From contig PS015054.1 of NCBI GenBank assembly GCA_048213135.1, positions 319,812 to 383,811 on the forward strand: DNA of 64,000 nt, given 5' to 3'. Positions 1-62,846 of this stretch are shown here, piece by piece. This DNA comes from Reclinomonas americana ATCC 50394 (lineage: Eukaryota). Positions within the stretch are counted from its first letter, which is position 1. The number at the start of each line of letters is the position of its first letter. Position numbers and translations under genes: made by a program. Below the pieces are notes generated by a model. It did no database searches. It was given only the letters and a program-made list of their open reading frames with translations, and was not told the DNA's origin.

Positions 1-3000
1 AGCGTAAACTCGCTCTGCGACTTGACGTTGCGTTGCACCTAGTCTCTTGCTGTCTGTCTGTGTCTGTTGCCGACTGATTCAGTTCTGCGCTGCAGCCTAC
101 GACTTGCGAGGTTGTCGGTTCATTTGAGTTCCAGAACGGTGACGATGGAGAGAGCGCTGTGGCCAAGGATGCGCCGCTGTTGCACTTTGGTGTTGTTGAC
201 GAGTTCCCGTCGCTGTTGCTGGCTTCATCGCTCAAGAACAAGCGGCCGTACGCCATGTCGTGGACCGGCGACAAGTTGGTGGTGCAGCCACTCACAGTTG
301 CGTGCTGAGTGAGCGAGTGTGTGCGAGAGCAGCAACTCACTGTGCGCATGCAGACGGACGAATCTCCGGCGTTCGGCTCCGTGTGCCCTGCCATTGTTGG
401 TGGGGTGCCGTGGACCATGGTGCTGCACGAAGATGGCTCGCTTAGTGCCTGGCGACTTACTGATGTGCGACTGCGAACTCTTCGCGTCGGCGTGCGCTCT
501 CCTCACCTGCTGGCGCGCAAGAGCGAGTTCTTCTCGCGCGCGTTTGCCACCATGGCCAGAGAAGATGTGCGTCTACGTAGTCATCGGAGCAGCAGCAGCT
601 TCTGCTCGAAGAGTGTCCTCATTTCTCGAATCGCTTGCAGAGTGCCAGCGAACCGTCGATCGACGCTTTCGAGCGCAGCCAATGCGACAAGGGCAGCATT
701 GTGTACAGCGGCGATTTCTCGTCCGTGTACAGCGCCTCGCAGCTGCGTAGACGTCTGACCAGCAATCCGGAAGATGGACACGTTGAGTCACCGGTGGAGC
801 GACCGACGCTGCACATTGCGTGCCAGAAGGCCGATTTGGTAAGTGTTCACTCTCCTCTTGTTTTGCACTCTCGGTTACTGAAGCACCCCGATGTTTTGAG
901 CGCAGGTAATGGTGGGCGCTCGAGTGTTCCTGGGCCACGGCTCACCCAACAACATTCCGTCGTACATTCAACTCACCAACTCGGGACGCATGATTCCGAC
1001 GATGCAAAACTGTGAGCGCTTCTACGACGTGCCGCTCTCGCTGAATGAGATTCGTGAGGCAATGAGCAACGGCAACAAGGTTTGGCGTGTGCGTGACGAA
1101 GACTTGACGCACGAGTACGCATCCTCAACTGCCCCATCGCAGTTTTCTCTCACGTTTGGTCCGCCACCCACTGGCAACGCCGGCTGGATCAATGCGGTTG
1201 ACGTGTATGTGCGTGCGCGTCCCGAATTCGAGGCGTCCATCGGTGCGAGCTCCGCGGCATCTCTGCAGCACGGTAATCAAACGCACACACGCGCGCGTCT
1301 GTTGTTGTGGTTCGATGCTGACCACGATTCTCAGCGGCGGCCACGGGAACCGTAGATCCGCATCTGCTGTCTCTCATTCGAGACACAGAGCCGCCTCGCG
1401 AGCTTGCCTCGCTCGTCGACTGCGTGAGTGTCGTTGGTTCGGCGCTGTCCGTCGTACCGCGCGCTGCCACTGAGGTGCGTGCATATATATTCAGTGAACG
1501 TGAGCGTGCAGGTTCGCCGCTCACTGTGCTGTGACAGGCTGTCCGCGAGCGTGTGAGACGTCTTGGTGCGCGTGTGCTGGGCGACCCCGAGTTTGACGCC
1601 GTCGCCGCCGTCATGAAGCGTGCACTCTTCTTCCTGCCCTCGGGTGGCGTCTCCGTGAGTCTGCCCGAGCTCAAGGCCGAACTCGGATTGGCCTTTGTTG
1701 ATGATGTGGCACGGGTGCGTAACGAGCCACCCATCCAGCATTCTCTCTCACGCCTGTCTTCTGATGTGTGTGTTTGTGCGCAGTTGTCTCGTGCGCCGCT
1801 CTCCGTCGGTGATCTCGAGGCTGCCGTGCTGGTCCTCCGCAAGGTCAGTGTTGCCGCCGGGTGTGTGTGTGTGTGTGTGTGTATATCGTTGCTTCTCACC
1901 GAGAGTGTGTGGTGTCGCAGGCATGCAGCCGCGGTGTCAACGTGGTGCACTCGTTCGCATCACTGCAGTACGTGCTCGATTCGTACACGACCTTGTGTCA
2001 GTCGGCGGCCACTCGAGCGCAACTGGACCGCCGCTTCGTGCTCACTGGCATTGGTCAGATGGTGTCGGCACTGTGCTTGTACGCCTGTTCCGGCAGCGTG
2101 GTATGCAACTCGCACGCAGATTCTCGCTGTTGCGGCATGTCTAATGTATCTGACTGCGTGGGTATCACACACAGGGCGACGAGGAGCGCGAGAAGCGCCT
2201 GCGGGCGATTGTGACGCCGTTTACGGCGCTCCTCAGCAGTGCGGAGCACTTGGAACGCTCGGTGGTGTCGCGAAGCTTTGCGGAGTTCATGTCGGTGCAG
2301 TGCCGTAAGAGCTCCAAGGGTTGCGTCTCGCCCGCTGCCGTGTTTTTTATGTTTATGCGGTGTGGTGGGTGTCCAACACTTTCTCCGACTCCCGCAGCCG
2401 CCAATGCCGGGTCGTCGCGAGCGCTGCAGTTCAATCTGCGACCACTGGTTGAACTCCTCGTGCACATGTTCTCGGCCACAGTCAGCGAGACGTCGGCCTT
2501 GCGCGCCGTGCAGTACTTCCAGACGCTGCTGCTCACCACGCAGTTTGCACTGGCATTGTCGCCCTCTGATGCGGACGCCATCAGTGCGCTGCTGGTGGAC
2601 AACTTGTGGAACCACCGTGCGGTGGTGGAGGGCCTGCACAGTGCCGCCACTCGTTCTCGCTCCAGCGAGCTGTCTGTCTGCGTTTTGCTCTTCTTCGTGT
2701 ACTTGTTGCGCAAGGATCGGCGCCTTCGCAAGCCGCTCACGCCGCTGGAGGAGGTGGCCAAGCCGAAGAAGTCCACAGTGTCCGCCTCCATGGCTGCCAT
2801 CTGGCGACGCCTGATGGGTGATGGTGCACTGGTCGACCGCCTGCTGGCTGCGGTGCAGTCGGTGGTGCACGCACCTCCCTCGCAGGTTGCTGCCCCTGCC
2901 GCGGCTGCCGGTGGCGCCAGTGGCGCGGGTGGCTCAGGTGCCAGCGGTGCCGCGGATGGCTTGTTGTGCCCGCCGGACGACGACTTGACCGACCACAACT

Positions 3001-6000
3001 TTGCGCCGTTCTTTGTGCCATCGTATGTGCGAGCCAATCAGCCCGACATTTTCCGCCACTTCCACTCGCTGCTTCTCGGCAACGCTCTGCGTCTGCTGAC
3101 CACGGTGTACCGCGCGTATGAGCTGTCTGGCGAGCCGCTGGAAGTGATGCGCAGTGACGGTATGAGCCGCACCCGTGTTCGCTGAGTGACCAGCTCGCTG
3201 ACTGCTTTGCGTCGTTATATTTGGTGGCTACAGCCTGGACGGAGTTGCTGCCGTCTATTATCTCGCGCACCGAGTTCGCGCTGTGTCGCAACCAGGCGAA
3301 GCGCTCGCTGTTGCAGCTTGTCGGCGACAAGGTCGGTCGAGTGTGTTTCTTTTGTTTGTCTGCCCGTACATTGTCTGACGGCGGCGCACGTGCGACACAG
3401 GATCGTTTCTATGAGCTGCGCGACCAGTACGCGTACGCAGCGTCGTTCCGCACGCTGGTATCGTCGGGCTTCTGGGAGATGGAGAAGTCGGAGAGCATTT
3501 CGGACGAGATGCTGGAGGCATTGGCCATTCTGCGAGCCATCGGAAAGACTGCTGTTCGCCGCCCGGCAGAGTGGTCGCGATTCCTCGCCGCCGAAGGCTC
3601 CTCCTTCCAGCAACTGGTCAGAATGCACTTCCGGCTGCACAGTGGATCGCGGTCGACCATTCTGCTTCTGCTGGCCACGGCCACCTGCCGCGTCGCCGAC
3701 GACCCAGTGCGCGAGCATCAAGTGCAAATGGTCTGTCGGTGTTGTCGATGACCAAAAAATCCCTGCGTTGTTGTGTGACCACTCGGTGCGCAGGTCGAGC
3801 AATTGCGCGACGATCGCGACTTGCTGACGCGTTACGTGGACGAGAGTCTGTTGGGAAGCGCCGACTCGCAGGTGCGGCGCAACACACAGTGCAGTCTTTC
3901 GGAAACTCAGCGAGTTGTGTCGACTGATCGCACGTGCCCCACAGATGCGCGCTCTGACGGCAGAGTTCCTGTTTGGTGTGTACCGAGCTGGAGACGATGC
4001 CGTGCGTCGTTTCTTCTGGAAGCTGTTTGTGGAGCGTGTGCGGACAGTGGCCGTGCATGGCTCGTGGTCGGATTCGTTCTACTCGCTGGTGTGCCGCGTG
4101 ATGCACGAGTCGGTGATCCCCGATCCCGAGACCAACATTCCGAGTTGCGCGCACGAGACGAGCGCCGTGCATTGTGTTTGTTTGTCTCATTCCGCGCGCA
4201 CAGAGTTCCTCGAGGTGTTCCGCGACGTTCTGCAGGAGTGCAACTCGTTCCTGGCCAACCACGAGAACTCGCACATTTACAAGGCCCTCCAGACGCTGGT
4301 GTCCTTCGACGGCTACTACCTGGAGGTGCATCCGTGTGCGCTGTGTTCGGCGTCGGCCGATTCGCACCCGGAAGACGTGAAGATGGACGAGGTGCGCACG
4401 GAAGTCAAGTACACGGACAAGTCGGTGTACTACCGGCTGGCCTCGCGACAGCGCATTTCGCGCATCGCTGTGCGTATCCAGGACCCGAACCCGCGCCGCC
4501 TGGTGCGCAAGATTGGCATCTACTACAACAACAAGGTGAGTGGATCGTGTGCATGTTGGGAGGGGAATGGTTCATGCGACACTTGGCTTGCTCACTGCGT
4601 CGTGGTGGCAGCCGGTGAATGACGTGAATGAGCTTCGTGTGGATCCGTCGCGCCTGCATCGTGTTGGTGCATTGGTCCTGGAGCGCTCGCAAACCGTGGC
4701 CGAGTTTGACCTGCCTGTGCCCGTGGTGGCGCTGAATCTGCTGATCGACTACGAGGAGTTTTATCCGAGCACGTCGGTGAGAATGATGCGCGCGCGCACA
4801 CGTGCCGGCATTTTGAGGAGACTGACTGTCTGCACAGCTCGCACCGGAACGCATGACTTGCCCACGCTGCACGCGTCCGGTGACGGATTCCCACGGCAAT
4901 TGCCAGTGCGGCGAAAACGCGTATCAGTGCCGCAGCTGTCGCAGTTGCGGAGATGAAAGCATGGGGCGAGTAGGTTGGTCTCGTCCACTCTAATCTCTCC
5001 CTCTGTTTTTTTTCTCGCTGCAGACATCAACTACGACAACCTCGATGCCTTCCTGTGCAACGAGTGTGGCTTCAGTCGGTACGGTCGTTTCGAGTACGTG
5101 CTGTCGGTGACGCCGAGCTTTGAAGTCGGTCACATTGACTCGGAAGACGGTGCGTTGCCGTATGAGAAGATAACCGAAGAACAAAAGAAGAAACTCATGT
5201 GCGTGTGCAGAGGCGGCCAAGATCAAGAAGCTGGTCGACGAGCAGACGGAGGCCAGCCATCGATACTACGAGCAGCTGAAGCAGAGTCGCACGTCGATCC
5301 TCCAGCTGCTGCGGCAGATGCGCGACACGCCTTCAGTGGCCGGTGGCGCCGGTGTCGGCAGCGGCAGTTCGCGGGTGTGTGTTGTTTGACTCGCATTTTG
5401 GCGGCAGTGTGGGGGATGCTTGCCATCTCACAGTGTTTTGTTGTTTGGAAAGCAGGCGGCGCGTGTGAATCCGCACATCCTTCCGTTGGCGCAGCTGTTC
5501 TCCACCGAGTGCCGCACCACCTTCCAGTCGTTCACGCAGAGTTCAATGCTGCTGGCGAACGCACGTCGCTCCCTCTCTCTCTTCGAGACGCAAGCCGACG
5601 ACGGTAATTCTGTGTCTCGTTGCACTCCAGCCGGCGGCAGGGTGTGGTGATGGTACTGACTAGGTGCTTGTTCACCAATGCAGAGACGTACATTCCTGTG
5701 AGCTCCTACTGCTACAGCTGCAATGTGCAGCTGGTGTCGTACTGCCTCACCTTCTTGAAGATTGTGTGCTCCTCGGAGGTGTGATTTTGTGGTTGTCGAC
5801 TTTTGCATCGTCGAATGACAGGTGACTGACTGCACACAACCGCCATACGCAGCTCAAATCAAGCGTGTCGGAGTACTTGGTGTCTGGTGGCTTCGTGCCC
5901 GAGTTGCTGGCCAACATGCAGCAGGGCAACTCGGAGACTCGCGAATCCGCCAAGAATGTGCTGTGCCGCATCTCCGAGTGCAGTGTGGAGGCCACGCAGA

Positions 6001-8512
6001 TCGTGTCTGCGCTGCTCAAGGCACGTGCTGTCCTTAATTGAATTGCCATCTGTCGCTCACTAACTGCGGTGCTCTGCTTCGACAGGAGAAACTGCGCTTT
6101 GTGCTCAGCCAGTATCGCTCGCTCGACGTGAGTGCGGCAGTCGGCGAAGACATGCAGCTGCTGACCGAATTGATCTCGCTCACCGACGACCGCTGGGAGT
6201 CACGCATGAAACTCGGTGCGCCACTTGTCTTGTCACTCTGACGATGGATCGCCGTGTTCTTCTGACGTGCATGGCGGCAGTGTTGGAGTTGCTGTTTGAC
6301 GCCATCAATCTCGGCATCGCCAGTCCTGTGGTGGCAGAGGAGGTCATTCTGCCGCTACTGACCGCCGTCAAGACCTACGTGCAGTGGAGCGCCGACCAGG
6401 AGGGTGCCAAACAGGAGGGCAGTCGAGGTGCGCATCGTCCCATCTCTCTCTCTCTCTCTCACAGACTTCGCTGTGTGCTCATTATTTGTTTTTTCTTGCC
6501 GCAGTGCCCTTCGAGGCGTGGGCCGAGAGTCGCTACACCTTTGAGATGTTCACGCGCGGCGAGGTGTCGCCCAAGTCGGAGCCGGCGTCGCCGTCGAGTG
6601 GACAGCCGCACGTGATGGCGTCGCCCGATTGGCTGAAGAAGCTGCTGCTGTGTCGCAGCTCACGCGCAGTGCGTCAGGAGGCCGTAACTCTGGTCACGCT
6701 GTTGTGCACTGGCAACGATTCGCAGTGCGTCACATGTTTTCTGTTGAAGCGCGATGGTGATGGCTGTGGACTGATGATTCAGTGTGCACAGCCGCCGGCC
6801 GTTCTTGCGCTACCTGACCACGCTTCTCGAGGACGCGATTCAGCTCGGCGACAGGTCGGAGGAGTTTTGTGGTCTCTACGGTGCGTTTGTGGAGAAGGCA
6901 GAGGACAAGAAACTGCTGGCATCACGAGTTGCGTTTGTCGATCAGCCACGTTCCCGAAAAGAGAAAATGCCCGCCCTCTCACGAATTCCCGCAGGGCTTC
7001 CTGACGCTCCTGATGCGTCTCATTCGCCGCGAATCCTCACGCCTGCAAAAGATGGAGGGCAGTCCGTCTGGCGACGCTTCGCAAGGCTTCTCCATCAAGT
7101 TCCTCACGGACCTGCTGGACGCTTTCTTGAAGATCCCCGAAATCTTTGCCGTGTTCAAGGAGGGCCGGGGCGTCGACGGACTGCTTCTCTCGTTCCTCTC
7201 GCTTCGGTGAGTGAGATGTGTGTGCCTCTCGAACGAGACTTGTCTCATGCTGCTGACATGCTGCGATAGTGGTCTGATGATGCAAAAGACCAAGCTGACG
7301 GAGGACTCGGCCAGCACGCTCAACACGATCCTCACCCGCTTCCTCTCCGAGTCCGATGAGCAGAAGCGCAAGTACGTTTCGGCTTGCGTTCGCGCGCTGG
7401 CAGTGTTGCGTGCTGTGTTGTTTTGCTGCATGTGTTTTCTCTCTGGCATCTCATGCGGCAGCAGGTCGACGGGCGACCGCACCACGACTGTCGTGTTCAA
7501 CGAACTGGCGCGGCTCACGGTCCCAGAGAAGAAGGAGAAGGACTACGAGCTGGAGCTGCGCAAGGCGCGCTCCCAGGAGGAATTCATCCGCGGAACGATG
7601 ACCCGAAACCCTTACAAGAGCTCACAGATTGTTGCGTCTCTGCCAGCAAATGTCTCTTGTTATGTGCGTGTGTTGTTATCACTTCCATGTGACTCACGTT
7701 TCTCTCTCTCTCTCTTGCGCGTAGGGACCGCTGATGCGCGACGTAAAGAACCGCATTGCGCGCGACTTGGAGCTGTATGTGGACGAGGACTTTGGCATTG
7801 AGTTGCTCGTGGCCAATCACATCATCAGTCTCAATCTGCCAGTCAACCTCGTGTACGAGAAAGTGTGGAAGAAGCGGCCGGAGAGTCGCAACGAGGCCGG
7901 CGGCGAGGCACCCATGGTCGTGATTTATCGTCTGCAGGGCCTCGACGGCGAAGCCACTGGTTGCGTGACTTGCTGTCTATCCTATCCGTGTGTGTATGTG
8001 TACATTTTGTGGCCTCTGACTGTGGTGTGCGACTCGGCAGAGGAGATTGTGGACACTTTGGAGGAGGAGAAGGAGGAGGAGGTGGATCCGGAGGAGAAAT
8101 TCCGCCTGACCAACGTGATGGCCGAGGTGCGTGGTGTGCATCCTGTGTGCTGTTGCGACAACAAACCGCCCAATCTGTGTGTTGCCTCTTGTCAGTGCGG
8201 TGGCATCGAGATTATTGCCGGCAAGTTGGCACGCATCGACTGCTTCTACAAGCATCGAGATATGGCGCTGGCGCTGCTTCATTTCCTCTCGTACTGCTCC
8301 AAGCTCAAGGTCAATCGGCAGCGCTTGTTGGAGATTGGCGCGATTGACACGTTGTTGGGTCGCGTGCGTCTGGCCCTGGAGGAGGCCGACGCGGTCATGG
8401 CGCAGCAGCTGTTGGAGGTCACAGAGGAGGTGGTCCGTGAGGCCAACGAGATCGCCGTGCGTGTGTCAGACGAATCGTCACCGTCGGTGGCCGCCACGTC
8501 GGATTCGACTGC

Positions 8513-8543
<31 letters not shown>

Positions 8544-11425
8544 TCGGTGGCGACTGCGGCGGCAGAGTCAAGCACGACACCCTCTGCCGTCGTGTCCTCT
8601 GCGTTTGGCTGGGAGGTTTGCACTGGACTCGACGATTTCGTTGTTGTGCTTCGTCGCTAACCCCCCTTTTCTTTTCTCGGTTGCAGGCCGGCAAGGACAA
8701 GTCGCTGGATCACTTGCGCTTCTTCCTCGATCATTTGAGCAACGATCTGGTGCGCTCCAGCCCGCCGATCTTCAACGCTGTTGCCAGGCTGTTGGCGTTC
8801 TTGACACAAGGCGACACACGGGCAATGGAAGTGCTGGTGGCCTTTTTCCAGCCGACGCTGGACTTTGCGGAACTCGACGCTGTCGCACAGCTCATCCCCG
8901 ACCGCATGTACATGGCCGAGCTGTTTGTCAAGGTGGTGCAGAGCATCACCGGCGATCGCAACGGCAACGCCTTCAAGGAGTGGCTGGCCGGCAGCAGGGT
9001 GGCCTCGGACGTGTTGCAGTACATCAACACCATGCTCGCGCCAGACAAGCGACAGGACTTGGCATTGTGCGTTTCTGTGATCTCTTGCTGGATACGTGAG
9101 AACATTGTCTTTCACTCATTCCACTCTCCCGCGACGCAGCTGGTCCAACTCACTGGCGGGTGCAAGCTTGCCGCTTGTGTTTGACTTGCTCGAGGGTGAG
9201 TGTGGAGCGAGAGGTGGTGAGCACGGAAGGATGACAGTTTTTGCGCTGATTTCTTGTGTGCATGCAGCGCTTGGACGGTCGTGCCCGCGCTTCCAGGAGC
9301 GCATGATTGAGGCCGGCGTGGTGGCATGCCTGCACGCAGTCGAAAGCTATCTGTCCACTGAAAAGGAAGAGAAGAGGGCGACGTCGCAGGCGGAGAAGGT
9401 CCTCGACTTTTTCGCCGAACATGGTGAGTTGCTTCGTGGAGCTGCGTGTGCGGGCTGCACTGCTGCTGTTGCGAATTGCTGACCTGTGGATGACTGGCAG
9501 GCGAACCGCACTTGCAGGAGGCCATTAAGAACCAGCGCGATGCGACGAGGTTGGAGAAGAAGAAGAAGGCAGATGCGAAGCGCAAGGTCTTGTTTTTTTG
9601 ATTTTCTTCTGAACCAGGAGATTCTTGTATGCGCGGTGATGCTGACGAATACCTCTGTGTGATGCGTGCAGGTCATGCTCGAAAAAATGGGCATCCAGCA
9701 GCAGGCCGGCTCCGCACGTCTGGTGTCGACGGCTGTGGTAGCGGGCGTCGACGACATTGCACCGGAGACGGGACTCGCTTGTGTCGTGTGCGACGAAGGC
9801 TACGTCAACAAGCCGGGCGAGTTGATGGGCATCTACTGCTTCTCCAAGCAGGCCGATCTTCGCCGCTCCGTTGGTGCAGCTCCCGAGGTCTGTTCGCAGC
9901 GACCGCAGCAGCTGCAGCACACTGTGAGTGTGACGCGTGCTGACTGACGACGCGATGCGCCACGCAGGGCGGATACTCGACGGTGTCGCACTTCAATGTG
10001 ATTCACTACAACTGCCACCGACGTGCTGTGGAGGCCGACCGCAACACGCGGCCACCCAAGCAGGAGTGGGAGGGTGCCACCGTGCGCAATCAGCATACGC
10101 GGTGCAACAGCATGCTGCCAGTGTTCCACACCAGCAACGATCGTGCCGAGTACACGCAGGCGATTGAGGCGTACTGGCAGACGCAGTTCAACCATGTTGG
10201 GCGATTCGATTCGAACCGCGTGCGGCTGCTGGTGCACGACATCAAGGTAGTGTCTGCGAGAGATGTAGTGTTTTTTGTGATGTTGACCTTGGGTGCTGAT
10301 TGCGTGTGCGGTGGCACAGAATCTGGTGATGCGATTTGCACGTCAGCAGTCGTTCTCGGAGGACGCGCATGGTGGCGGCACCGAGAGCAACATGAACTTC
10401 ATCCCATTCCTGTTGCAGATCGCCATGTTCACGCTCGACGAGCCGAGTGTCGGCGGAGGTGAACCGTTGCGCCGCCAGTTGGAGCAGGTGTGTGTGCCGT
10501 GCTGGGTTGCGTGTGCTCTACTATGTTCCTCACAGTTGTGAGCTTTTCGGGTGCGCGCAGAGCCTGTCGGAATTCGTCAACCAGACTGACGAGGAATCGT
10601 GGGTGGCCAGCTTCAATGAGGTGGACGACGTTTTCTACATGGCCGTCCTCTCGTTGCTGTTCATGACGGCGGAGGAGTGGGCCGTTTGCAAGTTACGTCG
10701 CCCGTCACCACGCAGTCACTTACATGCTGTCGCGATTCACACTCTGTGTGTGTGTGTGTGTGCAAAGGACGAACTTTGCGCTGCAGGCCATGCTTGCCAC
10801 AATGGCGGAGGTGTCGGAGTCGGAAGAAGTTGAGTGCACGCACACTGTGCTCCCATTGTATTGTGTTTGTCGAGTGACTGAATATGGGGTGGAATGCACA
10901 GGTGTCTGAGTTCTCTCGCGGACGCATCGGCCTGATCTTCATGTCGATTGTGCACAAGATCCACCGCTTCTTCCACAAGCGTGAGGCGCCGGCGGCGATG
11001 CCCGAGGGTGAGATGCGGATTGCGCACGACTCCAGTGATCCGCTCGTGCAGCAGCGCAAGCAGGTGTTGGCCAGTGAGCATGAAGAGGTCGGCAAGTACT
11101 TTGGAGGCGAGTTGTTGAACGCGTACCACGAGGAGCTGACGCAGTTTGAGGAGTTTGACGAGTTCTTCGACTTTATGAGTTGCGGGCGTGTGCACACTGT
11201 GCACGTCGAGTTTGACGGCAGCTTACACGCGCAATATCCCACGCAGGAATTGTCGACACGGTGGCCGGCAAGGGCGCCACTGCCGAACTGGTGGAACGGT
11301 ACAACCAGCTGGCACTCTCCAATCCCGTGATTGTGCAAGCCGATGTGCCTGTGCACGACGCAGGCCGCTCGTACGCGGGCGAGTACGCGGAAGAAGAGGA
11401 CTATGAAGGGGAATTCGAAGAGTAG
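1..11425 (+). CDS. UBR4: E3 ubiquitin ligase UBR4/p600/BIG, 3' portion; ~40 introns, 5' end outside the window
   Basis: Spliced exons give UBR4/BIG hallmarks: [136 protein letters not shown]. Stop TAG at 11423-11425. Confidence 0.95.
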
Positions 11426-11540: not shown

Positions 11541-14500
11541 CTATCGCTTCTCCTTGAACATGAAGCGGAGCGCAAGATACGTGAGCACCTTGGTCGCCAC
11601 GATGGAGAGCAGCAGCCAGATGCAGCTCCACCCGCGCGAGTTGATGCCGATACCGAGATCCTGCAACACTGCGTCGCCCGGAATAGGGCACGGGACGAGG
11701 GCGCCTTCAACGCACGGGAACTCCCGATCGTGGAACTCTGTGTGGAAAACGCAAGGCAATTGAGTGGGGAAAACATTTGCTGCAGTGCGTGAAGCGAGAC
11801 ACAGTACCGCCCACAGCAATGCCTTCGAAGCCGTAGCGGAAGAACGAAATGGCTTCGGCCCTGTACGTGTCGAGCTGGGTGAGTATTGAGAGGGGAAAAA
11901 GTTACGAAGAGAATACGCACCACACGTAAAAGTGCGGAGTGCCCTTGACAAAGAATTTGGAGAATAGGATCTGTGTGTGGCACGTATGCGTGAATACACA
12001 AGTTCGTCGATGCGCGCACGGACAGACGCAAACCATGAACGAGAAAATCAAGCTCATAATGGCGTTTCCACTCGTCTGCACGATGCAGCGAGTTGAGCAC
12101 ACACAGAGTGAGAATCAGTGGTGGCGAGTGAACGACGCAACAAAGTTTGGCAGGGCGGCCGAAATCATCTGGTTGTACGACGCTCCAGTGCTGAGAACGA
12201 GCCACGACAGCAGAACGAACCACATGAAGAACTCGAACGAGGAGTTGAATCCAACCTGCGAAACTCATCCGTTCAGCCGTGTGTGCGGGCGGGGTGAGTG
12301 CCGAAACCCACGCTCACCATCCAATACACCATGGCCGCGTACATCAGAGTCAGAACAATCGAGCTCGGAATGTCCAACAGTGTCGAGGCCACCCAGTATG
12401 CACTCGTGCGGTAGTAATTCGAGGCATTCTCGCGCTGGAACAGTGCACGCTCCTCCATCACTGCGACCATGGCGCAAACGCAACACTCTCAGCTCCATTG
12501 CTTTCCCCACCACACAGATGTGTTTGGCATCGAGACGCAACAACGCGGCATGGCAGGGAACGAAGATAGGCCGAGATAGGTGACGCAGAAGAAGAGGGCG
12601 CTGTATCGATCTGGGCGCACATACCACACGAGAATGAGAGACGGAGAATGACAAACAGACAGCAGGCTGGCAAGTGTACCGCGGATGGTGTTGACATTGT
12701 ATGCGATTTGCCAGTAGACTGTGCGTGTCGTCGTGCGAGTGAGTAAGCAACAAGCGTGCGAAGCAGGTGCCGGTGCGCGACAGCAACAGTACCGGTGCCA
12801 GTGAGAAGAGCCATGACGAGATTCACAAACAGGCGAACCCACACAACACTCGGCTCGCGCATCATGTACAAGAAGCCACGCTTGGTGATGTGGTAGGTTT
12901 GCACGAAAAAGTTGGTGGCGTACAGACTCTCGCGCTGCAAGCGGAAATAAACGTGTCAGAGAAGCGACACTGCCATGTGAGCGCATCACGCAATGCAGGC
13001 TACCTGTTTCGATCGTCGGCTGCTGGGCTCATCAGAGTTGACAGTTCGCATGGGCGACGCATCGGGTTGCTGCAACAGACGACCCAACTGCACACAGATA
13101 ATCCTCGTGTGAGTCACGCTCCCTGCTGCACCTTCCACGTTGTTTTCGCCGCACACACAAACCTCGGCTTTTGTGTCCCGCGCAATCGAGCTGTTGCGAT
13201 AGGCCTCGACCAGCGTTCTCTTGATGGAGCCAACGGATTCTCGGCGCTTCAACGCCTGCGGGCTCTCAGGATCCTTTGCCGCCAGCAGCGTCGGTCCCTT
13301 GTCGGTGAGGATGTCCACTGCAGGATACAATGAGGTCGTACTGAATGCTGTCAACGTGGGTAGCGAGGGAGGACATACGGAAAAAGTCGGACGGGTTGCA
13401 GAAGCGGTCGCACGCGTAGCCAAGTGACTCGAAGTACGGCAGGGCGCCCGCCGCCTCGCCAAAGTACGCCGTCTCACCACCTTCGGCGAGCAGAATAAGG
13501 CTGTACAACACGGGAGTGGGGAGGACGTCAGAGGCGAGGGCCGAGAGGAGAGAGTGTAGTCGCACTCCAGACGCACCGATCAAACAAGTGGAAAATGTCG
13601 CTGCGTGGCTGATGAATGCTCATCACCACAGTGAGATTGTTGGCTCTCGCAAGTTCCACAATGGCTTCCACAACAGATAGGGCGTTGCTGCCTGTGATTG
13701 ATGCACGCCTGTGCAGTGAGCAGCACTCGAGAGAGGTCAGGAGGGGACAGCAAAGCGAACCATCGAGGCCAGTGGTGATTTCGTCCTGTGACACACCGCG
13801 TCAGTGGCATGGGGCGACAACGACGCGATGACTGTACTGTCGTTGAACACTCACCAGGAAGAGAATGCTCGGGTTCGTCACCAACTCAACACCGATGCAC
13901 ACACGACGCCGCTCGCCTGTGTATGATGATGAGTCAGAAGTGGGAAGTCTTCTTGCCAAGGAGTGCGCACGTTACCTCCAGAGATGCCGCGCTGCATCTG
14001 GTCGCCAATCTTGCTGTCGGCAACGCGGCGCAGCTTGAGAATGTCAATCACTTGCTCCACCTGCCAGCGACGCAGTGAATAACCCGCGGCGCACGCATCG
14101 AGCAGGTGAGACAGCACTGACCCGCTGCTTCTTCTCCTCGTGCGAGACGCTTGGCGGCAGTCGCAGCGACGCCGAAAACATCAGAGTCTCACGGACAGTG
14201 AGGCACCTGCACCACACTCGTTAGAAGCAAGAGGAGGCAGAAGGTGGAGGAGGTGGAAGAGACAGACCGCAACAACACATCGTCTTGCATCACATACGCT
14301 GCAGAGTCGACATCAGCACACATCACTCCTTTGCTACTGAGCACACACCAGGCAGCACAGAGGGGTGCGCACCAGAGATGCGCTTAAAGTACTTGTCGGG
14401 AACGCGTCCATTGATCTTGATGGTGCCCGACATGTTGGCCGGGTCCTTCCTGCAATCACACACACAAAGCGCCACTCACTCCTCTGCAGTTGTCTCTTGA

Positions 14501-20922: not shown

Positions 20923-20964
20923 TGTGTTGCATTCAATAATAACATGTTTACGTATGTCTTTCTA

Positions 20965-23011: not shown

Positions 23012-23094
23012 AAAGGCACTTTGGTCGCGGTTCAATTGGGGTCGTCCCTCTCGCCGGGACAAGTCAAACGCACACTCACTTACGTAACTCGCTC

Positions 23095-52816: not shown

Positions 52817-52854
52817 CAAGGAAACGCAAGCGTTTTGTACCAGTAACATCCTCC

Positions 52855-53343
52855 TCAGATGGTGAAGAGGTTTTTGAGGAAGCCGAGGGAAAAGTAAATA
52901 AAGATTACGGAGAAGAGTGCGGACCAGATCATCAGATCGAGCACATAGATCAGATGATTGCTGGTGGCATAGATGGCCGCCACTGCCAGCGCTGAGTCCA
53001 TGAGGGAGAGAGAATGAGACACGAGCACACTGGTGAGCAATGGGGTGTGAGACTCTCTCACCTGGAGGCGCAATGTACACGAATCCCAGCAAGCCGCTGA
53101 GCAACGCCATGGCAATGGGGAACGCCACAAACGAGATGTAGTACTTGGAGACGACGCGAATCGAGGCGAATGCCCACAGAAAGTGGAACCCTGCGATCTC
53201 CGCCACTGTCACACCCACCAGAATGCCCCAGATGCCTTGTGTTGGAGAGAGAGACGAGCGTGAGCGGATGATGCAGGCAATGAGAGATTGACAAGGGAGA
53301 TGCAACTCAAGAGGCCTTCCCAGAAACTTGGTTCGCTCGCCAT
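52855..53343 (-). CDS. Small multi-pass membrane protein, TMEM170-like
   Basis: Spliced MASEPSFWEGLLSIWGILV..FH..ALAVAAIY..FLKNLFTI. Size, TM layout and the AAIY and C-terminal pattern recall TMEM170. Confidence 0.55.
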
Positions 53344-53467
53344 GTGTGTGCGTGAGAGAGAGAAGAGAGCGTGCGCGTGAGTGAGTGTGCGTGAGAGAAT
53401 GCGCGGACAATCAGTCGCTGACTCAACGGCCACCGATTGCTTCTGAGCGTGCGAGAAGAGGCCCTCC

Positions 53468-56173
53468 ATGGCACTCTCTGGATGGGAGGCACCTCGCGAT
53501 GACGAGTTCTTTGCCAGCAGGTCAGTGCCGCTTGTTGCTCTCCGTGAATGCGTGTGTGCGTGTGAGAAGAATACGTGTTTTACGCATTCGGTGAAAACTT
53601 TACAGGGTCTCTCCGACTCGAGCGCTGACCGAGGACGCTCATCACCATCATCAACCATCGCATTATGGTCGTCGTTCACCGCCCACGACTCATGGTGAGT
53701 CAGTGTGTGAGAGTGCGTGTGTGTGTGTGTGTGTTTTATTTTGACTGTGTATATGTTCGCTGCTGCCGTAGATGACAGCAGCATTTCGATATTTGGAGTG
53801 AGAGCCACCTTGTCGCCACCGAACCAGCCGCCTCCACCACCACCACCACCACCACCACCAAGTGTGCCACCACTGCCTATGGAAACGATGCGATCGTCGC
53901 CTGTGCGAAGGAGACCACTTGTACGCACCGCAGCTGGCTCACCGACGGCACCGGCGTCGCCTGTGGGCAGCGAGGCCGCAGCGTCACACTCACTGTTGAT
54001 GGCGCGATCGGTGTCGTCGCCTCACATGCAGCAGCTACAGCAGCAGTTTCAGCAGCGATTGGTGTCGCCACGTCCGTCGCTCACCTCACTGTTGGAGATG
54101 CGTTCGAACTCACTCAAGTCACTGTTCTCGGGTGGCCTGTCGAACGCATCGCCGCCGCCAGCCGCGTCGCCGACGCACGTGTCGTCGCCGCGCGTCGCTA
54201 CTCCGTCATCTGTTCCGTTGCAGTTGCAACGGGAGGCCAAGGCTCGTCGTTCGTCGTTCTCGGTGGCTCTCCTGCAGGAGGAGTCGCGACCGCTTCGGCG
54301 AGCGCAGCTCTTTCACACCGATCGCGGCCGTCCTGATGTGCCGCCACAACGTGCACCGTCGCCACCCAGGATACGAGTGCCGAATCACTCAGAGACGCAC
54401 AGTGTGGGCATGGCGCCCAGCGACGGTACGCTGCTCGACGTGAGCCACGAACTCTCGGATGCTGTGTACGACGACGATGAGAGCGACAGCGATGAGCAGA
54501 GTGACGACGAAGGCGGCAAAGGTGGTGCGCGAAGTCGCCGGCGTCGTCGCGCATCACCCAGCCACTCTGCCACTCGTCTGGCGACGACGGATGCGAGGTG
54601 GCGTCCGCGGCTGCGTGTGCCGCACACGGATCTGTCGTTCGACACCACGTCGGTGTACTCGCCCGTTGCCCGTGGTCACTCGCCACCGCAACCACTGGTG
54701 GCCTCACCACCGCCGTCGGCTCGACAACTGAATGCCGCACTCTCCGCAGAGGTCGGCCATCCGCTTATCAAACTCGATCTGGTGAACGAGCAAATGAGGT
54801 TGCGTCACCAGCGCCTTCTGTTCACGATATCTTCTGTCTGAGCTCTCATGGCGCACTTCATGCCCGGCAGGTTACAAGTGTATCACAGTCAGCAGCACCT
54901 GCCACACCCACATCCGGCGCTGCCGCTGGGCGGAAAACTCGGAGCGCTTTTCGTTCCCGGAACCAGTGGTGTGCGTGCCACGCTGCACACACGTCACGAC
55001 CGACAGCCGCTGCGGTTACCCGCCGATCAGTTCTTCTCCAGCCCTTGGTGTGTGTATGTGTGTGTACCGGATGGTACCCCTTCCCCCGCAGTCTCTCTGA
55101 CTCGCAAGTGCGCAGGCAACCACTGCTGAACGGCATTCCGACTCGATTTGTCACTGACGGTGAGTGAGCGAGCCTCCCCCGTGGTGTCGGGAGTTTGTCT
55201 TGCTTATACACTGTCAATCAGATGTGGACTTGCCGCGGGCCGAGTTTACAGATGATTCCGACGAGGAGGAGGAGGAGGAGGCCGAGCGCAGTGGTATGGA
55301 AAGCGCGATTTCGGAAGCGGCCGCCAGCGAGGCGGAGACCAGTGGTGCAGGTGATGCACCTCCATCTCCCGCTCAGACCACTACCGCACTGGCACCGGAG
55401 GCCGACAGGGAGCGACGGGTGTCGCCTGCGGTGAGCCCGAGTGAGCTTTTTTGTGGAGAAGTGTGTGGTATGAGTGTGGCTGACACCATTTTTTGATCAG
55501 CTTGCCATGCGAGTGGTCACCTGGGTGGCAAGAGCGCGAAGGAAGGTGCGGCGACGGCGACACATGCAGCAGCGCGAAGCCATTCAGAAACTTATCGACA
55601 GCGGCAAAGTGAGTCATGCAACGAGTATCGCAGAGCAATTCGGTGTCGGCGACTCACTGTGCCGCCAATGTGCAGCTGATTGTCGAGGTTGACGAAGACG
55701 ATTTGCGCAACGGCAAGATCCCGTTGCCTTACCGGATGCAGGGAAACATGGACATGTACACGGACGATGCAATGCTGACTCGAGAGCAGCTGCGGAAACA
55801 TCCACGGATCATGGCAATGCTTGATCAGGTGACGTCTGCTATTCATCTCGTGGGAGTGCGAATCGTGCACAGAGGCGACTAACCGCATGTCCGCAGTTTG
55901 TACACCTGCTGGCCCGCAGCAAAAAGACGCAGCGAATTCCCAAGTCCGAGTACGTGATGATTGCACGCTACGTGTACGACCTGCTGGCGCCAGAAATGCC
56001 GCGGCACTTGCGGCGCGAAGCGGTAGAACAGGAATGGGCAGAGGAGAGCGGCAGCGCTGACGCACAGGAAATGACGACAGATCGCTTCCGAGACTCGATT
56101 TTTGAACTGGCAGGTATGTCAATGGCATTATGCACGGGAGGATGTGTGACTGGGAGCGACTCAACAGTCGCTC

Positions 56174-56204
<31 letters not shown>

Positions 56205-58233: not shown

Positions 58234-58316
58234 TTAATTACCAGTGAAATCCCTCCCCCGTCGCCTGTGCCGGGCTGCTGCTACACACACGCATGCGTTC
58301 ATGTCGTATTTTTCAT

Positions 58317-61300
58317 CTACAGCAGAGCATCCGAGAGAGCGGTGGCCACGCGGAACTCCTCGCGAGAAAGCATCGTGTACATCCTTTGTGGGCACGCCAG
58401 ACCACCGCCAGCCGGGCGAACAGAGGCACTGCGGAAGATGAACTCGCGTGCAGTCGGTGCTGGGAACTCTGCGAGGAACGACTTGAGTGCACGTCTGTGG
58501 AAGAGAATCAAAACAGCCGCCCACCCCCACTCACCACGCCCGCCACCGCTCACTCGCAGGAACTCGACCACGAGTGGAATGTCCATCACACCGACTTCGA
58601 ATGTACCATCCAACAGCTGGTTGACAAATGTCTGCGCACGATCGGGAGCCAATCGCTCAAACTGCCGTCACAAGCGCAGGTAAGCTCCCGTATGCGCGCA
58701 CTTGGGGAGATTACGAGAGCACGCAACTCGCTCCAACAGCGAAGCCACTCGTGAAATGGCAATCTCCAGCTCCTCCATCTTGTAGATGACGTCTTGCAGT
58801 GCGCGCCTGCTACATCCCATACGAACGCGTGAGCATTGACGCAGAGAGGAACAACAACACAGTTCAGCGGCTGGATGGTGGGGCGCAACATGTCACCGGC
58901 ATTATCGGGATCAAACGCATGTTTCATCAGCAGTCTGCAGTCCTCCACGAGATCCTCGAGAAGAGGGAATCCGGTGACATCCATGGCGCTGGTGAGCACC
59001 AGGAAGCCGGTGACAAGGCACTGGCGCAAAATCCTGCGAACACATGTGGCTGTAAATACCACAAGCGAACAGGTGGAAACGTAACGATGACGCACGCAAC
59101 TGGAGCATGAACTCATCCATGGTCATGGTCTCAAAGTAGTGCAGCACGAGCTCGGCCTCGCGCACATAGTCGAACAAGGCGCGCTGCTTGGCAGCAGGCA
59201 CTGGCGTTGCTCGCTGCGCGCTCCCTACAGTTAGCAGAATGCACGGCACGAAATCGTTCCGGAATAACACACCTCCCACGACTCTGTCCACTGGCTGGAC
59301 TCGCGCATGCGCAGACTCAGTGAGCCATCCGGATCCAGATCCTACTCCACGCAGGCAGTGAGTTTCTCTTCCAGTGCAACCCGTGGGAAATCAATGCGTC
59401 GCACACAGGTACCTTTGGCGAGTACCACTTGATGAAATCCTTCAGCGTGCACCCGGGGTTCGCGGCCTTGAATGCTTGCATGTCTGTGGCGTTCTCCAGG
59501 ACTTCAGGGAGACGGAAAGAGAGAGAGAGATGACTGCAGCACGACGTCGGCACGCACCAGACACGAGCTGTGGGGTCTGCATGGCAGCACGAATCCGTGC
59601 CGCTTCGCGCGAGGTGCCGAGATTGGAAAACACCTCCTGCTGGTGAATGACCACATCCTCAGTGACGGGTGGCATCTCCTGTGAGCGTGGTTCGTTCAAT
59701 TTCTGAGTGCTCGAGAGAAGCACTCACATATACAAACCTGCGTCTCGGGCACATACAGTGGGGCGCCAGAATCACAGCGAACGCCTTTCAAGCGACTCTT
59801 GATACCGACACCCGGTGGTGCGCCTCCGTCTTCCATGCTGTCGCCCTCCAGCAGTACATCCGTGAGGTCGACCTCGGCAGTGACGACTGAGTCGTCGACA
59901 GCGGCTGATTCGTCGACGACAGCGTGTGCGATCGCTCCTGCTTCGTCCTCCTCTTCCGGTGCCTCATCGGGGTCGTCCACCTCTGCATCGAAAAACTCCT
60001 CGCACGTCTCGTCCAGCTGCGATGCAGATCCCTGCTGCAAGCACAATCATGTCGGTGGAGAAGCCGAATGCAAACAAGGGTGGAAGCTGCAACGTACAGA
60101 CGAGGCCACTGTAGAAGCAGTGCTTGCGGTGGCGGCGACGGTGGCAGCGGAAGGGGGACTCGCCTGCTGTGGCGACGGCACCAAGTTCAGCTCCTCTTCG
60201 TCGAGGAAATCCCATCCTACCACGTTGACTTTAGTGAAAAACAGTGGACAACCACGCTCAAAGTAGATGCAACACCAGCTGTCACACCTCCTTCCTCGGC
60301 AGTGGCAGTGGACACGTTGAGGGTGGCGGCTGCGCTCTGAGGCGAGCGCACCGGCGACTGGCTACCTCCGTGGAGCCGACTGGCCGCGATGCAACAGTTG
60401 AGCTGCGTCGTCATCATCATCATCATCATCATTGTGATGACGATCTCGTGTCAGTGGATGGCGAGTGCAAACAGACTGAACAGGTGCGCCTAACCAGCTG
60501 CAGCTTCTGATGGAAGAGCGACGTGTCTAGATTTGGATTGCCGGGGTCCGTGTACGGCAACGAAATGTTGTTCTCCCAGCGATAGCGCAGCTCACGCAGG
60601 AACACCCGTCGCAGCATTTCCACTCCTTCGTCCTCGGACACGAGAGACAACTGCACCGCCATTCGCCACGGCAGCGAGCCAGGTGGACCGCACTTGGGCA
60701 GCATCTGTCGGACGAAGCGTGAGTTCACGAACGCGGACTCGACCGCAGCACCCGCAATCCGACCACTCACCCGCAAGTGACTCTCCCACGCGCTGCGAGC
60801 ATGCGCTGTGGTGGCCACATCGACGGCCCCGCCAGCGATTCTTCACGAGAGGAAGATGCAGAGAGTGAGCTGGCGTGCAGATTGCAAGCAGTAAACTTTA
60901 TCCTTCTTCGCCCCACACTCACCTTCTGTACCGCTCGACGGCTTCGCTCAGCTCCTCGGACATGGGCCACGTGTACAGGTTGCCCAGTGTATTCTGCAGC
61001 GCCAGATACACATCGCACTGCGACACGGTCTCGCGTGCCTTTCGCCGCTCTGCACCGCGAATGAGCTCGCCCTTCTCTCAAGGCAAGACCACACCGCACG
61101 ACGACGCAACGCTTCTTTTCGCCAAACAGATTGCCAATCACCTTGATCAGCTGTTGCTCCAGAGCTGCATGTGTGTGAGCAAAGCATCAGCTGCAGGAAA
61201 CAGCAACGGAAGACATTACTCACCAGATCCCCCTCGTGCACTCCCAGGTCTCTGATAGTGTCCGTATGTGGTGAACACTGCACGAAGGAACTCACTCACA

Positions 61301-62846
61301 CCGGCGCTGTGCCTGCACAGAGATGCACAACGGCTTGTGAGTACAGTGTCAATCCACGGCCATTATCCCATCACGCCCCCACGCAACTTGTCTTGATCGA
61401 ATGCGGTGATCATCCATCGCGAGGCAGCCTCGGGGTGCAGCTCACTGTAGCCGGCTGTGTCGACCAGTGCCGAGGACGGTGTCATGTCCCAACGTGCGCA
61501 GCATCGGACGGCCGCCACTGCGTCGGCTTCTGTGCCCACCTCCCACTGCGGCACAATGGAGCGCTCGTTAAGCCGGTCAAGAACCTTGGTCCAGCTGTGC
61601 ATCTCCAGCGCGTCGCTGACGTAGGTGAGTTGCGCGGTCACATTGATCTTGCTGCCGAGACTCGATCGTAGTCCCTGCAGTGCGCGCGCGGTCAGTGGGG
61701 AGACGAACTGGTGGAAGAGAGCAGAGTGCTCACCATTTTCAGCGAAAACAAGTCCACCAGACCGGCGACGTTGGTGTAGAGTGGCGGAATGGTGGTGGTG
61801 CTGTCGACGGCGTACGATGTGACAAACTGCTGTGTGGCGTGACACTTTTCGCCCATCTCTTGCACAAGCGGGCCCTGGCCGTGCGCCGCGACGCACTTGG
61901 TGCGCGAGGCCACAGCATCCTTCTCCAGCGAGTAGCCGACATACGACAACGATCCGATCTGCACAAAGCACGGCAGCGAACTGGTTGTTGAATGGAGGAC
62001 ACCGTGAGCTGATCGCCGTTCCTTCAGCTGACAACAGGCGATGCGCTCGCACTCACCACCCGAGATTGCCAATGGCCGTGGTGACGGCGCTCAGCAGCAG
62101 AGGCGCCGTGCGCTTGTCAAACGATCCAGAGTTGGGCGACACCACCATGAAGCGCTCCACTCCAAACCATCGGTGCAGGCGATGGGCGCTCTCCGGAAAG
62201 TCCCTTCGCGGATCCAGCAGCGCGCCAAACACATCCACTGATCCGCACAGAGACAAGTGTCACAAAATAAAGACGACAACAATCAACAAACATGAGTGCA
62301 CAAACCCTCTTCCGTTTCACGCGAGAAGAAGTAGAACAGCTTGTACGACTCGGCATCAAAGAGCAGCACACTGGAGAGACACAACTCGCCGACCGCCGTG
62401 GAAGCGCGCGAATTCGCCTGCTGCCGACACACAATCAACATCACAAACTGAACATTCTCTTGGTCCGCCCCTGCCCACGCACCTCTTGTTCCTCCTCTCG
62501 CTCCACAAGCCACTGTCGCAACAAGTCCTCAATCTCTGCCACAAACCTGCTCACTCGTCAGATCACAATCTGATCATCACATCATCTGCCGCTGCTGAAA
62601 GTCACGCAACTTTTCATACGGCGACACACACGAGTAGTCCTCGATCTCAAAGTACTCCTCCTCCTTCTCAGCTGGCTCCTCGCTGTCATCCTCCGCCTCC
62701 TCTGCCTCCTCCTCTCCTTGATCTTGTTCTTCATCGTCGTCGCCCCACGTGTCATCATCATCATCAGCGTCGCCACCAGCAGCACCCGGCTTGGGTCGTC
62801 TGGGTCGACCAAAGGCGTCCAGTGATCCCTCTGCCGCAGCCGACAT
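58317..62846 (-). CDS. RAB3GAP1: Rab3 GTPase-activating protein catalytic subunit
   Basis: FEIEDYSCVSPYEK, RLHRWFGVERF, LRELRYRWE..P..LFHQKLQL, PLYVPETQ, PVTEDV..RAAMQ..SDMQAFKAANPGCTLKDFIKWYSP, LFDYVREAELVLHYF, PQRMY. Confidence 0.95.

Follow-up and report, generated by a model that had tools for sequence, protein, structure and literature searches.

A 64-kb window of the Reclinomonas americana ATCC 50394 genome (assembly GCA_048213135.1, contig PS015054.1, positions 319,812 to 383,811, forward strand; "the window" is this whole stretch of 64,000 nucleotides) contains two kinds of intron start. Ordinary donors have the form (A)G|GTG[C/A/T]GT(G), or more loosely G|GUNNGU, while a second, abundant group has the form N|GTTGCGT. 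Introns with ordinary donors are called class 1 here and those with GTTGCGT-type donors class 2, counts of class-2 introns being approximate. The motif GTTGCGT is present in excess, is restricted to the sense strand and sits at intron starts; homology fixes several of the junctions at which it is cut, and the exon-side profile of these sites is displaced by one base. Class 2 probably consists of introns of the major spliceosome with a second abundant 5' splice site, N|GUUGCGU, to which the U1 small nuclear RNA (snRNA) would pair in a shifted register. All results were obtained on this one window, with predicted gene models and distant homologues.

Abundance and strand bias of GTTGCGT

Two gene models, both the authors' own predictions, were used. 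The donor-blind gene finder relies on codon periodicity, frame consistency, stop codons, intron length and an acceptor profile, and gives every GT or GC an equal prior as donor because circular reasoning was to be avoided. The donor-informed model learns its donor weights in the form of a two-component mixture. The blind model predicts 192 introns and the informed model 212, with a median length of about 70 nucleotides (nt). Both allow GT/GC..AG introns only, so the GT..AG ends of class 2 are partly given by construction.

The most frequent donor hexamer of the blind model is GTTGCG (37/192), followed by GTGCGT (18), GTGTGT (14) and GTGAGT (9). Among the other GT dinucleotides of the sense strand, GTTGCG is found in 32 of 4295 cases, which gives an odds ratio of 32 (p ~1e-33). 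From its second pass onwards, the blind model contains an intron-content Markov model whose training set is complete predicted introns, first bases included; this leak is small, as the first and crudest pass, which is free of it, already ranks GTTGCG first (8/95). In the informed model, 47 introns start with GTTGCG, three with GTTACG and three with GTTGAG, and the 212 donors divide into 140 ordinary, 54 class-2 and 18 other GTT sites. The share of class 2 among predicted introns is thus 19% (37/192, blind) or 25% (54/212, informed, under a slightly wider motif definition), and the class is present in 14 of the 19 modelled genes.

The heptamer GTTGCGT occurs 42 times in the window, compared with 17.6 +/- 3.9 expected from 100 dinucleotide shuffles (maximum 26), and between 30 (blind) and 39 (informed) of these copies are predicted intron starts. 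The most telling result is their strand: 41 copies lie in the sense of predicted genes, none antisense and one between genes in the blind model, and 42 sense and none antisense in the informed model. When the next base is A, C or G, GTTGCG in most cases does not serve as a donor, and 27 such copies lie antisense; sense transcripts thus seem to avoid the complement of GTTGCGT. Three sense copies fall inside predicted introns (10506 and 50990 on the plus strand, 12484 on the minus strand) and may be true or alternative donors, or flanks of missed micro-exons. The copy at 10506 is 18 nt downstream of the modelled donor 10488 and in frame with it.

An initial annotation of this DNA had listed 44 such donors, and every one of them carries GTT at the given base and strand (32 GTTGCGT, 4 GTTGCGC, 2 GTTGCGG, 1 GTTGCGA, 1 GTTACGT, 2 GTTGAGT, 1 GTTGAGC and 1 GTTGCAT). 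The blind model re-found 34 of them, and 42 are in the informed model; of the other two, 4944 was missed by the models but has support from homology, and 53306 is supported by nothing. The estimate that about 12 of some 40 introns are of this type in the gene for a UBR4/BIG-like ligase (1-11425, +; C-terminal 2,765 residues, 42 or 43 introns) agrees with the 11 of 42 modelled there, plus 4944.

Junctions fixed by protein conservation and reading frame

All junction motifs quoted in that annotation were recovered (GPT|GGGK, CRSCR-N-INY, SQI|GPLMRD and K-S|GFLTKRG), and four predicted class-2 junctions, at 4944, 7631, 7960 and 14711, are fixed by conserved protein motifs. The Walker A motif has the spacing GxxxxGK. 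In the gene for an ABCG half-transporter (~11541-14840, -), the cut at 14711 joins ...IMGPT to GGGK and restores this spacing, while the spacing or the frame is lost if GTT stays in the exon or another GT close by serves as the donor. In the UBR4-like gene, the cut at 4944 gives CRSCR-N-INY, to be compared with CRQCRNINY in two UBR4 homologues (P0017 and P0051); a cut slid by one base would yield S in place of N. The alignment to P0002, an environmental homologue that lacks introns, is free of gaps across both 7631 (SQI|GPLMRD) and 7960 (GEAT|EEIVD). At 7960, the codon split by the GT-AG intron encodes E, as in P0002, and the slid cut scores lower (E, not G).

Shifting the donor 3 nt downstream to the GC lowers the alignment scores in 7, 6, 8 and 8 of the 8 best homologues at 6928, 7405, 7631 and 7960, respectively, and ordinary control introns respond to the same shift in the same way. 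In a boundary scan, all pairs of cuts within +/-9 nt of the modelled ones, with any dinucleotides, were scored against homologues. The modelled pair is the only one among the tied best pairs with GT..AG ends, and ordinary control introns again behave alike. Reading frames add to this picture, as 26 of the 37 class-2 introns of the blind model cannot be read through, since they contain a stop in frame or their length is not a multiple of 3.

Three other cuts could be discarded. A GC donor 3 nt downstream is ruled out by the Walker A spacing and the lower homologue scores, a cut slid by one base by the N and E residues at 4944 and 7960 together with the P0002 alignment, and the GT at +6/+7 by the same homology-fixed junctions.

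The true cuts might nevertheless lie elsewhere, or the extra T might be a systematic assembly error in N|GTGCGT sites. The gene models are predictions, and homology resolves junctions to 1 to 3 nt only, which leaves some room for such an artefact. Yet the P-loop spacing, CRSCR-N-INY and GEAT|EEIVD exclude alternatives 3 nt, 5 nt and 1 nt away at those sites, and the scan singles out the modelled pair by its GT..AG ends. An assembly error would in addition need to be an insertion confined to sense-strand intron starts after non-G bases, with 0 of 42 copies antisense, and we know of no error mode limited in this manner. An artefact is accordingly a very unlikely explanation.

The P-loop region of the ABCG gene (window 14525-14840, -), read by eye, is spread over micro-exons of 23 nt (14712-14734), 12 nt (14631-14642) and 29 nt (14525-14553), separated by introns of 57 to 77 nt. 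The 12-nt exon escaped the gene finder, which read through it instead. The nearest relatives seen are two environmental proteins. P0001 (71% identical) matches up to ...QGLDGEAT, the end of the exon at 7959, and continues with Phe-rich text; its tail looks as if a T-rich intron in that same place had been translated. P0214, an ABCG fragment, matches the predicted spliced product of the window without gaps over five ordinary junctions and diverges after NPSDFF, where the window has an intron.

Register of the second donor class

The listed donors were described as nearly always following a base other than G, in contrast to ordinary donors, and the counts agree. Only two of the 44 follow G (2320 and 7960), the rest following A (23), C (11) or T (8), whereas ordinary donors follow G in 115 of 140 informed cases and, in the noisier blind set, in 80 of 135 donors without T at +3. 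The modelled sites behave in the same way: G precedes 5 of 54 class-2 donors (informed) and 4 of 37 GTTGCG donors (blind), and A precedes 24 of 54 and 17 of 37.

In the informed catalogue, the -1 profile of class 2 (A 24, C 12, G 5, T 13, or 44/22/9/24%; n=54) matches the -2 profile of ordinary sites (A 55, C 36, G 14, T 35, or 39/26/10/25%; n=140). The log-likelihood of the class-2 -1 bases is -68.3 under the ordinary -2 profile (shifted) versus -142.6 under the ordinary -1 profile (unshifted), and that of the -2 and -3 bases is -148.2 shifted versus -152.4 unshifted. On the intron side, G at +6 is present in every one of the 54 class-2 sites, G at +4 and C at +5 in 50 each, and T at +7 in 43; C stands at +4 in 58 of 140 ordinary sites, while GC at +4/+5 of class 2 is nearly fixed. 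The conserved block is displaced by +1 from the GU cut, and the last exon base behaves like the penultimate one of ordinary sites. Both classes fit a single 8-mer, A-G-[G/T]-T-G-C-G-T, cut before its first GT.

A T at +3 is not what sets these sites apart. GTTTGT donors have T at +3 but keep G at +5 and T at +6, as in ordinary sites, and all six of them in the blind model follow G. Therefore, the displaced GCGT, and not +3T alone, goes with non-G exon ends, and +3T as the defining feature was ruled out because GTTTGT donors behave as ordinary sites. The two-class code proposed in the initial annotation stands in so far as sequence statistics and homology point to a second donor class one base downstream, used after non-G exon ends.

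The same exon-side profile favours a putative shifted register over a simple bulge, in which U1 would keep its normal register and loop out the extra U at +2/+3. Such pairing would retain all ordinary base pairs (GU-[U]-GCGU), it is the predicted minimum-energy duplex for sites after -1G, and the available text of PMC4856993 describes the bulge +2/+3 register as validated in human cells. However, the U1 base opposite -1 would be left free for G, so that -1G is expected to be favoured, and class-2 donors do not keep it. As the exon side also fits a one-base shift better, the bulge register seems improbable.

Proposed reading of the motif by U1

The reader of GUUGCGU is taken to be U1, pairing in the shifted register with a 5' end that would have G opposite +4C (and perhaps C opposite +3G). 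The U1-complementary block would sit one base further from the cut in class 2 than in ordinary sites, and U1 would pair with A-G-[G or U]-U-G-C-G-U in one physical register for both classes. The cut 5' of the first GU would then be placed presumably by U6, U5 and Prp8, giving AG|GUGCGU or A|GUUGCGU. In the latter, the intron +1G would take the place of the exon -1G of ordinary sites, and class-2 donors could therefore work after non-G exon ends.

Nearest-neighbour energies with a canonical U1 5' end, taken as printed in PMC4856993, are -8.9 kcal/mol for the ordinary consensus and -2.5 kcal/mol for class 2. These calculations suggest weak binding of canonical U1 to GUUGCGU and make a U1 carrying G opposite +4C appear likely. 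For such a U1, the values become -14.8 kcal/mol (ordinary) and -8.4 kcal/mol (class 2), and class 2 is predicted to pair in the shifted register, with a single U-C mismatch. Human sites computed with canonical U1 give closely similar values, -14.0 kcal/mol for the consensus and -7.6 kcal/mol for the shifted type. The near-fixed GC at +4/+5 of class 2 fits this model, because a weaker, mismatched helix could not afford a second mismatch. An Rfam scan of the window returned no family, hence no snRNA gene within these 64 kb.

Alternatively, each donor class might have a reader of its own, with a second U1 snRNA whose 5' end is fully complementary to GUUGCGU. This variant would have A where the main U1 has the C that pairs with +1G, so that the shift would be built into the snRNA. 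The hypothetical variant gives -14.7 kcal/mol after A versus -12.3 kcal/mol after G and thereby yields the observed bias towards A and against G at -1, unlike a single shared U1, and full Watson-Crick reading would predict a nearly invariant motif, as is found. Precedents come from the available text of bioRxiv 10.1101/2022.06.08.495308, which reports co-evolved U1 variants in Entamoeba and Mastigamoeba and says that Physarum has a standard and a modified U1. Nevertheless, a G-U wobble at -1 would still be tolerated although G is the rarest base there, and the simpler shifted register with one U1 is proven in humans, as far as the available text of PMC4856993 goes. A second U1 is thus possible but clearly less probable than a single shared one. 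In its broader form, a two-code system in which either a second U1 or a changed U1-C/LUC7-type protein reads GUUGCGU, with branch site and 3' signals common to both classes, is likewise a minority possibility. If it were true, 5' splice-site recognition would be split inside the major spliceosome and introns could sit after any exon base, which fits the even phases of class-2 introns described below.

Several observations weigh against a shifted register read by a single U1. That class-2 sites are spliced at all is a reading of the sequence, and the size and location of the removed segment are defined by homology to no better than 1 to 3 nt. Conservation is too weak for a decision at 7405 and 10692, where the modelled pairs rank 27/121 and 9/118, and translation could continue through 11 of the 37 class-2 introns of the blind model, which keep the frame and contain no stop. 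These include the listed 35554 and 36122, which are part of both models but cannot be confirmed by open-frame logic; they lie in the long open frame of a Vps23 gene, with coding potential and intron signals as their support. The match between class-2 -1 and ordinary -2 depends on the informed catalogue, as in the blind set the ordinary -2 base is G in 33 of 135 cases. Given the -2.5 kcal/mol obtained with canonical U1, the shifted-register model needs an unproven U1 variant, and such a variant is not to be assumed, since donors with +4C coexist with canonical U1 in Mamiellales and Thecamonas (available text of bioRxiv 10.1101/2022.06.08.495308). If a single U1 served both classes, its predicted pairing with a class-2 site after -1G would be stronger in the bulge form (-11.0 or -13.0 versus -8.4 or -10.4 kcal/mol); as these sites are rare all the same, U1 affinity alone does not explain the pattern. 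Finally, +5G and +6U are displaced for U6 as well, and how U6 copes with this is left unexplained by the model.

Class-2 introns compared with ordinary introns

Apart from their donors, class-2 and ordinary introns look like products of the same machinery. Median lengths are 68 nt (class 2) and 69 nt (class 1), and G+C contents 0.556 and 0.541. The most frequent 5-mer of the intron tails is CTCAC, at 34% in each class. Of 53 class-2 and 137 class-1 introns, 42 and 105, respectively, contain CTNAY within the stretch from 8 to 45 nt upstream of the 3' end, at median distances of 18.5 and 19 nt from the 3' splice site. Throughout the window, a branch-like CTCAC/CTGAC motif lies about 19 nt upstream of the acceptor, and the acceptor itself reads [G/A]CAG. 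In the blind model, G or A precedes CAG in 121 of the 135 ordinary introns and in 32 of the 37 introns of class 2.

Class 1 and class 2 differ in intron phase (65/51/24 versus 16/17/21 for phases 0/1/2). Even phases are expected if class 2 frees introns from the need for an exon-final G.

U12-type introns have the donor /RTATCCTT and the branch site TCCTTRAC. They resemble the present case in that a second distinct donor consensus exists beside the major one, but class 2 shares its branch motif, length and acceptor with class 1. With the same tail 5-mers and CTNAY distance as class 1, and with the U12 consensus absent, this identity was rejected. A family of mobile introns (introner-like elements) that spread recently and by chance begins with GTTGCGT would account for a 7-mer common to dozens of introns of similar length. 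Their interiors, however, are unrelated, as 24 of 1431 class-2 pairs (1.7%) share an interior 10-mer compared with 229 of 9730 class-1 pairs (2.4%), and lengths and branch motifs are those of ordinary introns, which leaves a mobile origin hardly credible. GT..AG ends, a branch-like motif, and removal that restores the frame or a conserved protein are all found in class 2; matching length and branch motif, together with unrelated interiors, mark the predicted introns as ordinary U2-type GT-AG introns and not as mobile copies or minor-type introns.

Comparison with known systems and significance

Human 5' splice sites of the shifted-register /GUUAAGU type were reportedly first described by Roca and Krainer. 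Class 2 shares with them the GU cut site, U at +3 and a U1-complementary block one base downstream. It differs in abundance, at 19 to 25% of predicted introns, and in a block that is GCGU instead of AAGU and nearly invariant; furthermore, the human type has been validated in cells, while class 2 is known from sequence alone. According to the available text of PMC4856993 (Tan et al. 2016), the shifted register is proven in human cells, and in it the position of the cut is not determined by U1 pairing; the validated noncanonical registers add up to 1.5% of 201,541 sites, and the bulge +2/+3 class comprises 68 predicted sites. Shifted or bulged U1 pairing at a small share of human sites was thus already known; new here would be its abundance as a regular donor class.

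The other comparisons rest on the available text of bioRxiv 10.1101/2022.06.08.495308. Entamoeba uses GUUUGU(U) donors with a co-evolved U1 (5'-AACAAAC-3'). U at +3, a motif extending to +7U and a lineage-specific splice code are common to both systems, the Entamoeba code being tied to U1. However, nearly all introns of the intron-poor Entamoeba genome conform to a single consensus, which is in normal register, whereas the very intron-dense window has two classes (140 ordinary, 54 class-2 and 18 other GTT donors of 212) instead of a single transformed consensus. Its +3U class is out of register, and its GTTTGT donors follow G like ordinary sites. Mastigamoeba balamuthi has GUGCGC donors and a U1 with ACGUAC, in which G stands opposite +4, and thereby provides a precedent for a U1 with G opposite +4C. 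Mamiellales (GYGCGY donors) and Thecamonas (+4C donors) have a standard U1. The ordinary class of the window is likewise of the GUGCG type with C at +4, and that text mentions no second class of the GUUGCGU type for these lineages.

In the literature on the motif, shifted registers and atypical donors, supplements not covered, no lineage with a comparable two-class code was found, and a description in a genome paper is possible. The search for the motif itself returned only primers, aptamers and miRNAs, and a tunicate paper raises a shifted register merely as a possibility. None of 72 environmental (metagenome) loci encoding UBR4 relatives, which are distant (at most 63% identity), has an excess of GTTGCG on the sense strand.

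If the shifted-register reading is true, about one fifth of the introns depend on one fixed out-of-register donor, and such pairing can become a regular part of a splice code. The lineage would then be a natural system in which to study how cut sites are chosen independently of U1. Gene-prediction programs that learned from +3R donors would mis-model about one intron in five in this lineage, including genes with micro-exons such as the ABCG gene.

Catalogue of class-2 introns and other features of the window

Table 1. Class-2 introns, possible class-2 introns and one unsupported donor in the window. Listed, among the 44 donors of the initial annotation; blind and informed, found by the donor-blind and the donor-informed model.
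Feature	Positions	Strand	Support and remarks
class-2 intron, GTTGCGT	27..82	+	listed; informed
class-2 intron, GTTGCGT	297..353	+	listed; blind; informed
class-2 intron, GTTGCGT, after G	2320..2397	+	listed; blind; informed
class-2 intron, GTTGCGC	4144..4203	+	listed; blind; informed
class-2 intron, GTTGCGG, UBR4-like zinc-finger region	4944..5023	+	listed; missed by both models; CRSCR-N-INY as in homologues P0017, P0051
class-2 intron, GTTGCGT	6928..6994	+	listed; blind; informed; 7/8 homologue scores favour cut; sole GT..AG among tied top pairs
class-2 intron, GTTGCGT	7405..7464	+	listed; blind; informed; homology weak (rank 27/121)
class-2 intron, GTTGCGT, SQI|GPLMRD	7631..7724	+	listed; blind; informed; ungapped alignment to intron-less P0002
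class-2 intron, GTTGCGT, after G, GEAT|EEIVD	7960..8040	+	listed; blind; informed; P0002 ungapped; junction codon rules out one-base slid cut
class-2 intron, GTTACGT	10692..10767	+	listed; blind; informed
class-2 intron, GTTGAGT	10829..10901	+	listed; blind; informed
class-2 intron, GTTGCGG	11179..11246	+	listed; blind; informed
class-2 intron, GTTGCGT, ABCG gene	12076..12141	-	unlisted; blind donor with other acceptor; informed
class-2 intron, GTTGCGT, ABCG gene	12461..12541	-	unlisted; informed only
possible class-2 intron, GTTGCGGT, ambiguous	14207..14273	-	informed only; in-frame GT 6 nt downstream makes cut site uncertain
class-2 intron, GTTGCGT, splits ABCG P-loop GPT|GGGK	14643..14711	-	listed; informed; read by eye: sole cut keeping GxxxxGK
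class-2 intron, GTTGCGT	15470..15535	-	listed; blind; informed
class-2 intron, GTTGCGT	17326..17440	-	listed; blind; informed
class-2 intron, GTTGCGC	18008..18095	+	listed; blind; informed
class-2 intron, GTTGCGT	18842..18903	+	listed; blind; informed
class-2 intron, GTTGCGT, ALG9-like gene	21916..21987	-	unlisted; blind; informed
class-2 intron, GTTGCGT	22322..22382	-	unlisted; blind; informed
possible class-2 intron, GTTACGT	22953..23088	-	informed only
class-2 intron, GTTGAGC	23178..23236	+	listed; informed
class-2 intron, GTTGCGT	23843..23918	+	listed; blind; informed
class-2 intron, GTTGCGT, before GFLTKRG (PH-like)	25037..25094	+	listed; informed
class-2 intron, GTTGAGT	28518..28576	-	listed; blind; informed
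class-2 intron, GTTGCGT	28790..28859	-	listed; informed
class-2 intron, GTTGCGT	30388..30456	+	listed; blind; informed
class-2 intron, GTTGCGT	31588..31653	-	listed; blind donor with other acceptor; informed
possible class-2 intron, GTTGCGT	32970..33077	-	unlisted; informed only
class-2 intron, GTTGCGT	34669..34764	+	listed; blind; informed
class-2 intron, GTTGCGT, 66 nt, in frame, stop-free	35554..35619	+	listed; blind; informed; within open 544-aa frame
class-2 intron, GTTGCGC, 66 nt, in frame, stop-free	36122..36187	+	listed; blind; informed; same open-frame caveat as 35554
possible class-2 intron, GTTACGA	37783..37839	-	blind; informed
class-2 intron, GTTGCGT	39830..39889	-	listed; blind; informed
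class-2 intron, GTTGCGA	42812..42893	+	listed; blind; informed
class-2 intron, GTTGCGT	43984..44046	+	listed; blind; informed
class-2 intron, GTTGCGT	45230..45297	+	listed; blind; informed; read by eye
class-2 intron, GTTGCGC	45471..45541	+	listed; blind; informed; read by eye
class-2 intron, GTTGCGT	45574..45658	+	listed; blind; informed; read by eye
class-2 intron, GTTGCGT	45763..45835	+	listed; blind; informed; read by eye
class-2 intron, GTTGCGT	47239..47328	+	listed; blind; informed
class-2 intron, GTTGCGT	47547..47625	+	listed; blind; informed
class-2 intron, GTTGCGT	48309..48376	+	listed; blind; informed
class-2 intron, GTTGCGT	49329..49390	+	listed; informed
class-2 intron, GTTGCGT	50162..50225	+	listed; informed
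unsupported listed donor, GTTGCAT	53300..53306	-	listed only; in neither model; inside predicted 173-nt intron
class-2 intron, GTTGCGT, after G	54799..54888	+	unlisted; blind; informed
class-2 intron, GTTGCGT	58662..58727	-	unlisted; blind; informed
class-2 intron, GTTGCGC	58807..58889	-	unlisted; blind; informed
class-2 intron, GTTGCGT	59034..59100	-	listed; blind; informed
class-2 intron, GTTGCGT	61050..61110	-	listed; blind; informed
class-2 intron, GTTGCGT	61313..61387	-	listed; informed
class-2 intron, GTTGCGT	62547..62610	-	listed; blind; informed

A modelled class-2 case at 60494 fits the motif only loosely. The window has a G+C content of 59%, and its genes are densely packed on both strands and interrupted by very short introns, reaching the very high density of about 5 introns per kb of coding sequence in the UBR4-like gene. 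Further recognisable genes encode an ALG9-like mannosyltransferase, the Vps23/UEV protein and a WD40 protein. In a library-wide protein search, the best match to a conserved UBR4 exon was a 98-aa environmental fragment with 71% identity, and the best matches to the ALG9-like frame have 30 to 34% identity. The named best matches of the window proteins are scattered across eukaryotes and come from Diplonema, Gefionella, Cyanophora, Mastigamoeba, dictyostelids, Balamuthia and Acrasis.

A giant gene at 41693-52816 (+), with ~2,700 residues and ~34 introns, encodes Thr/Ala/Val-rich repeats (VTVTGTGL-like). Four long frames of it were tested and gave no Pfam match; the product is possibly a surface protein. 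The class-2 intron at 45574-45658 (+) contains a run of about 15 C at 45633-45647. A putative GC-AG intron at 6021 (+), with the donor GCACGTGC, is used once by the informed model.

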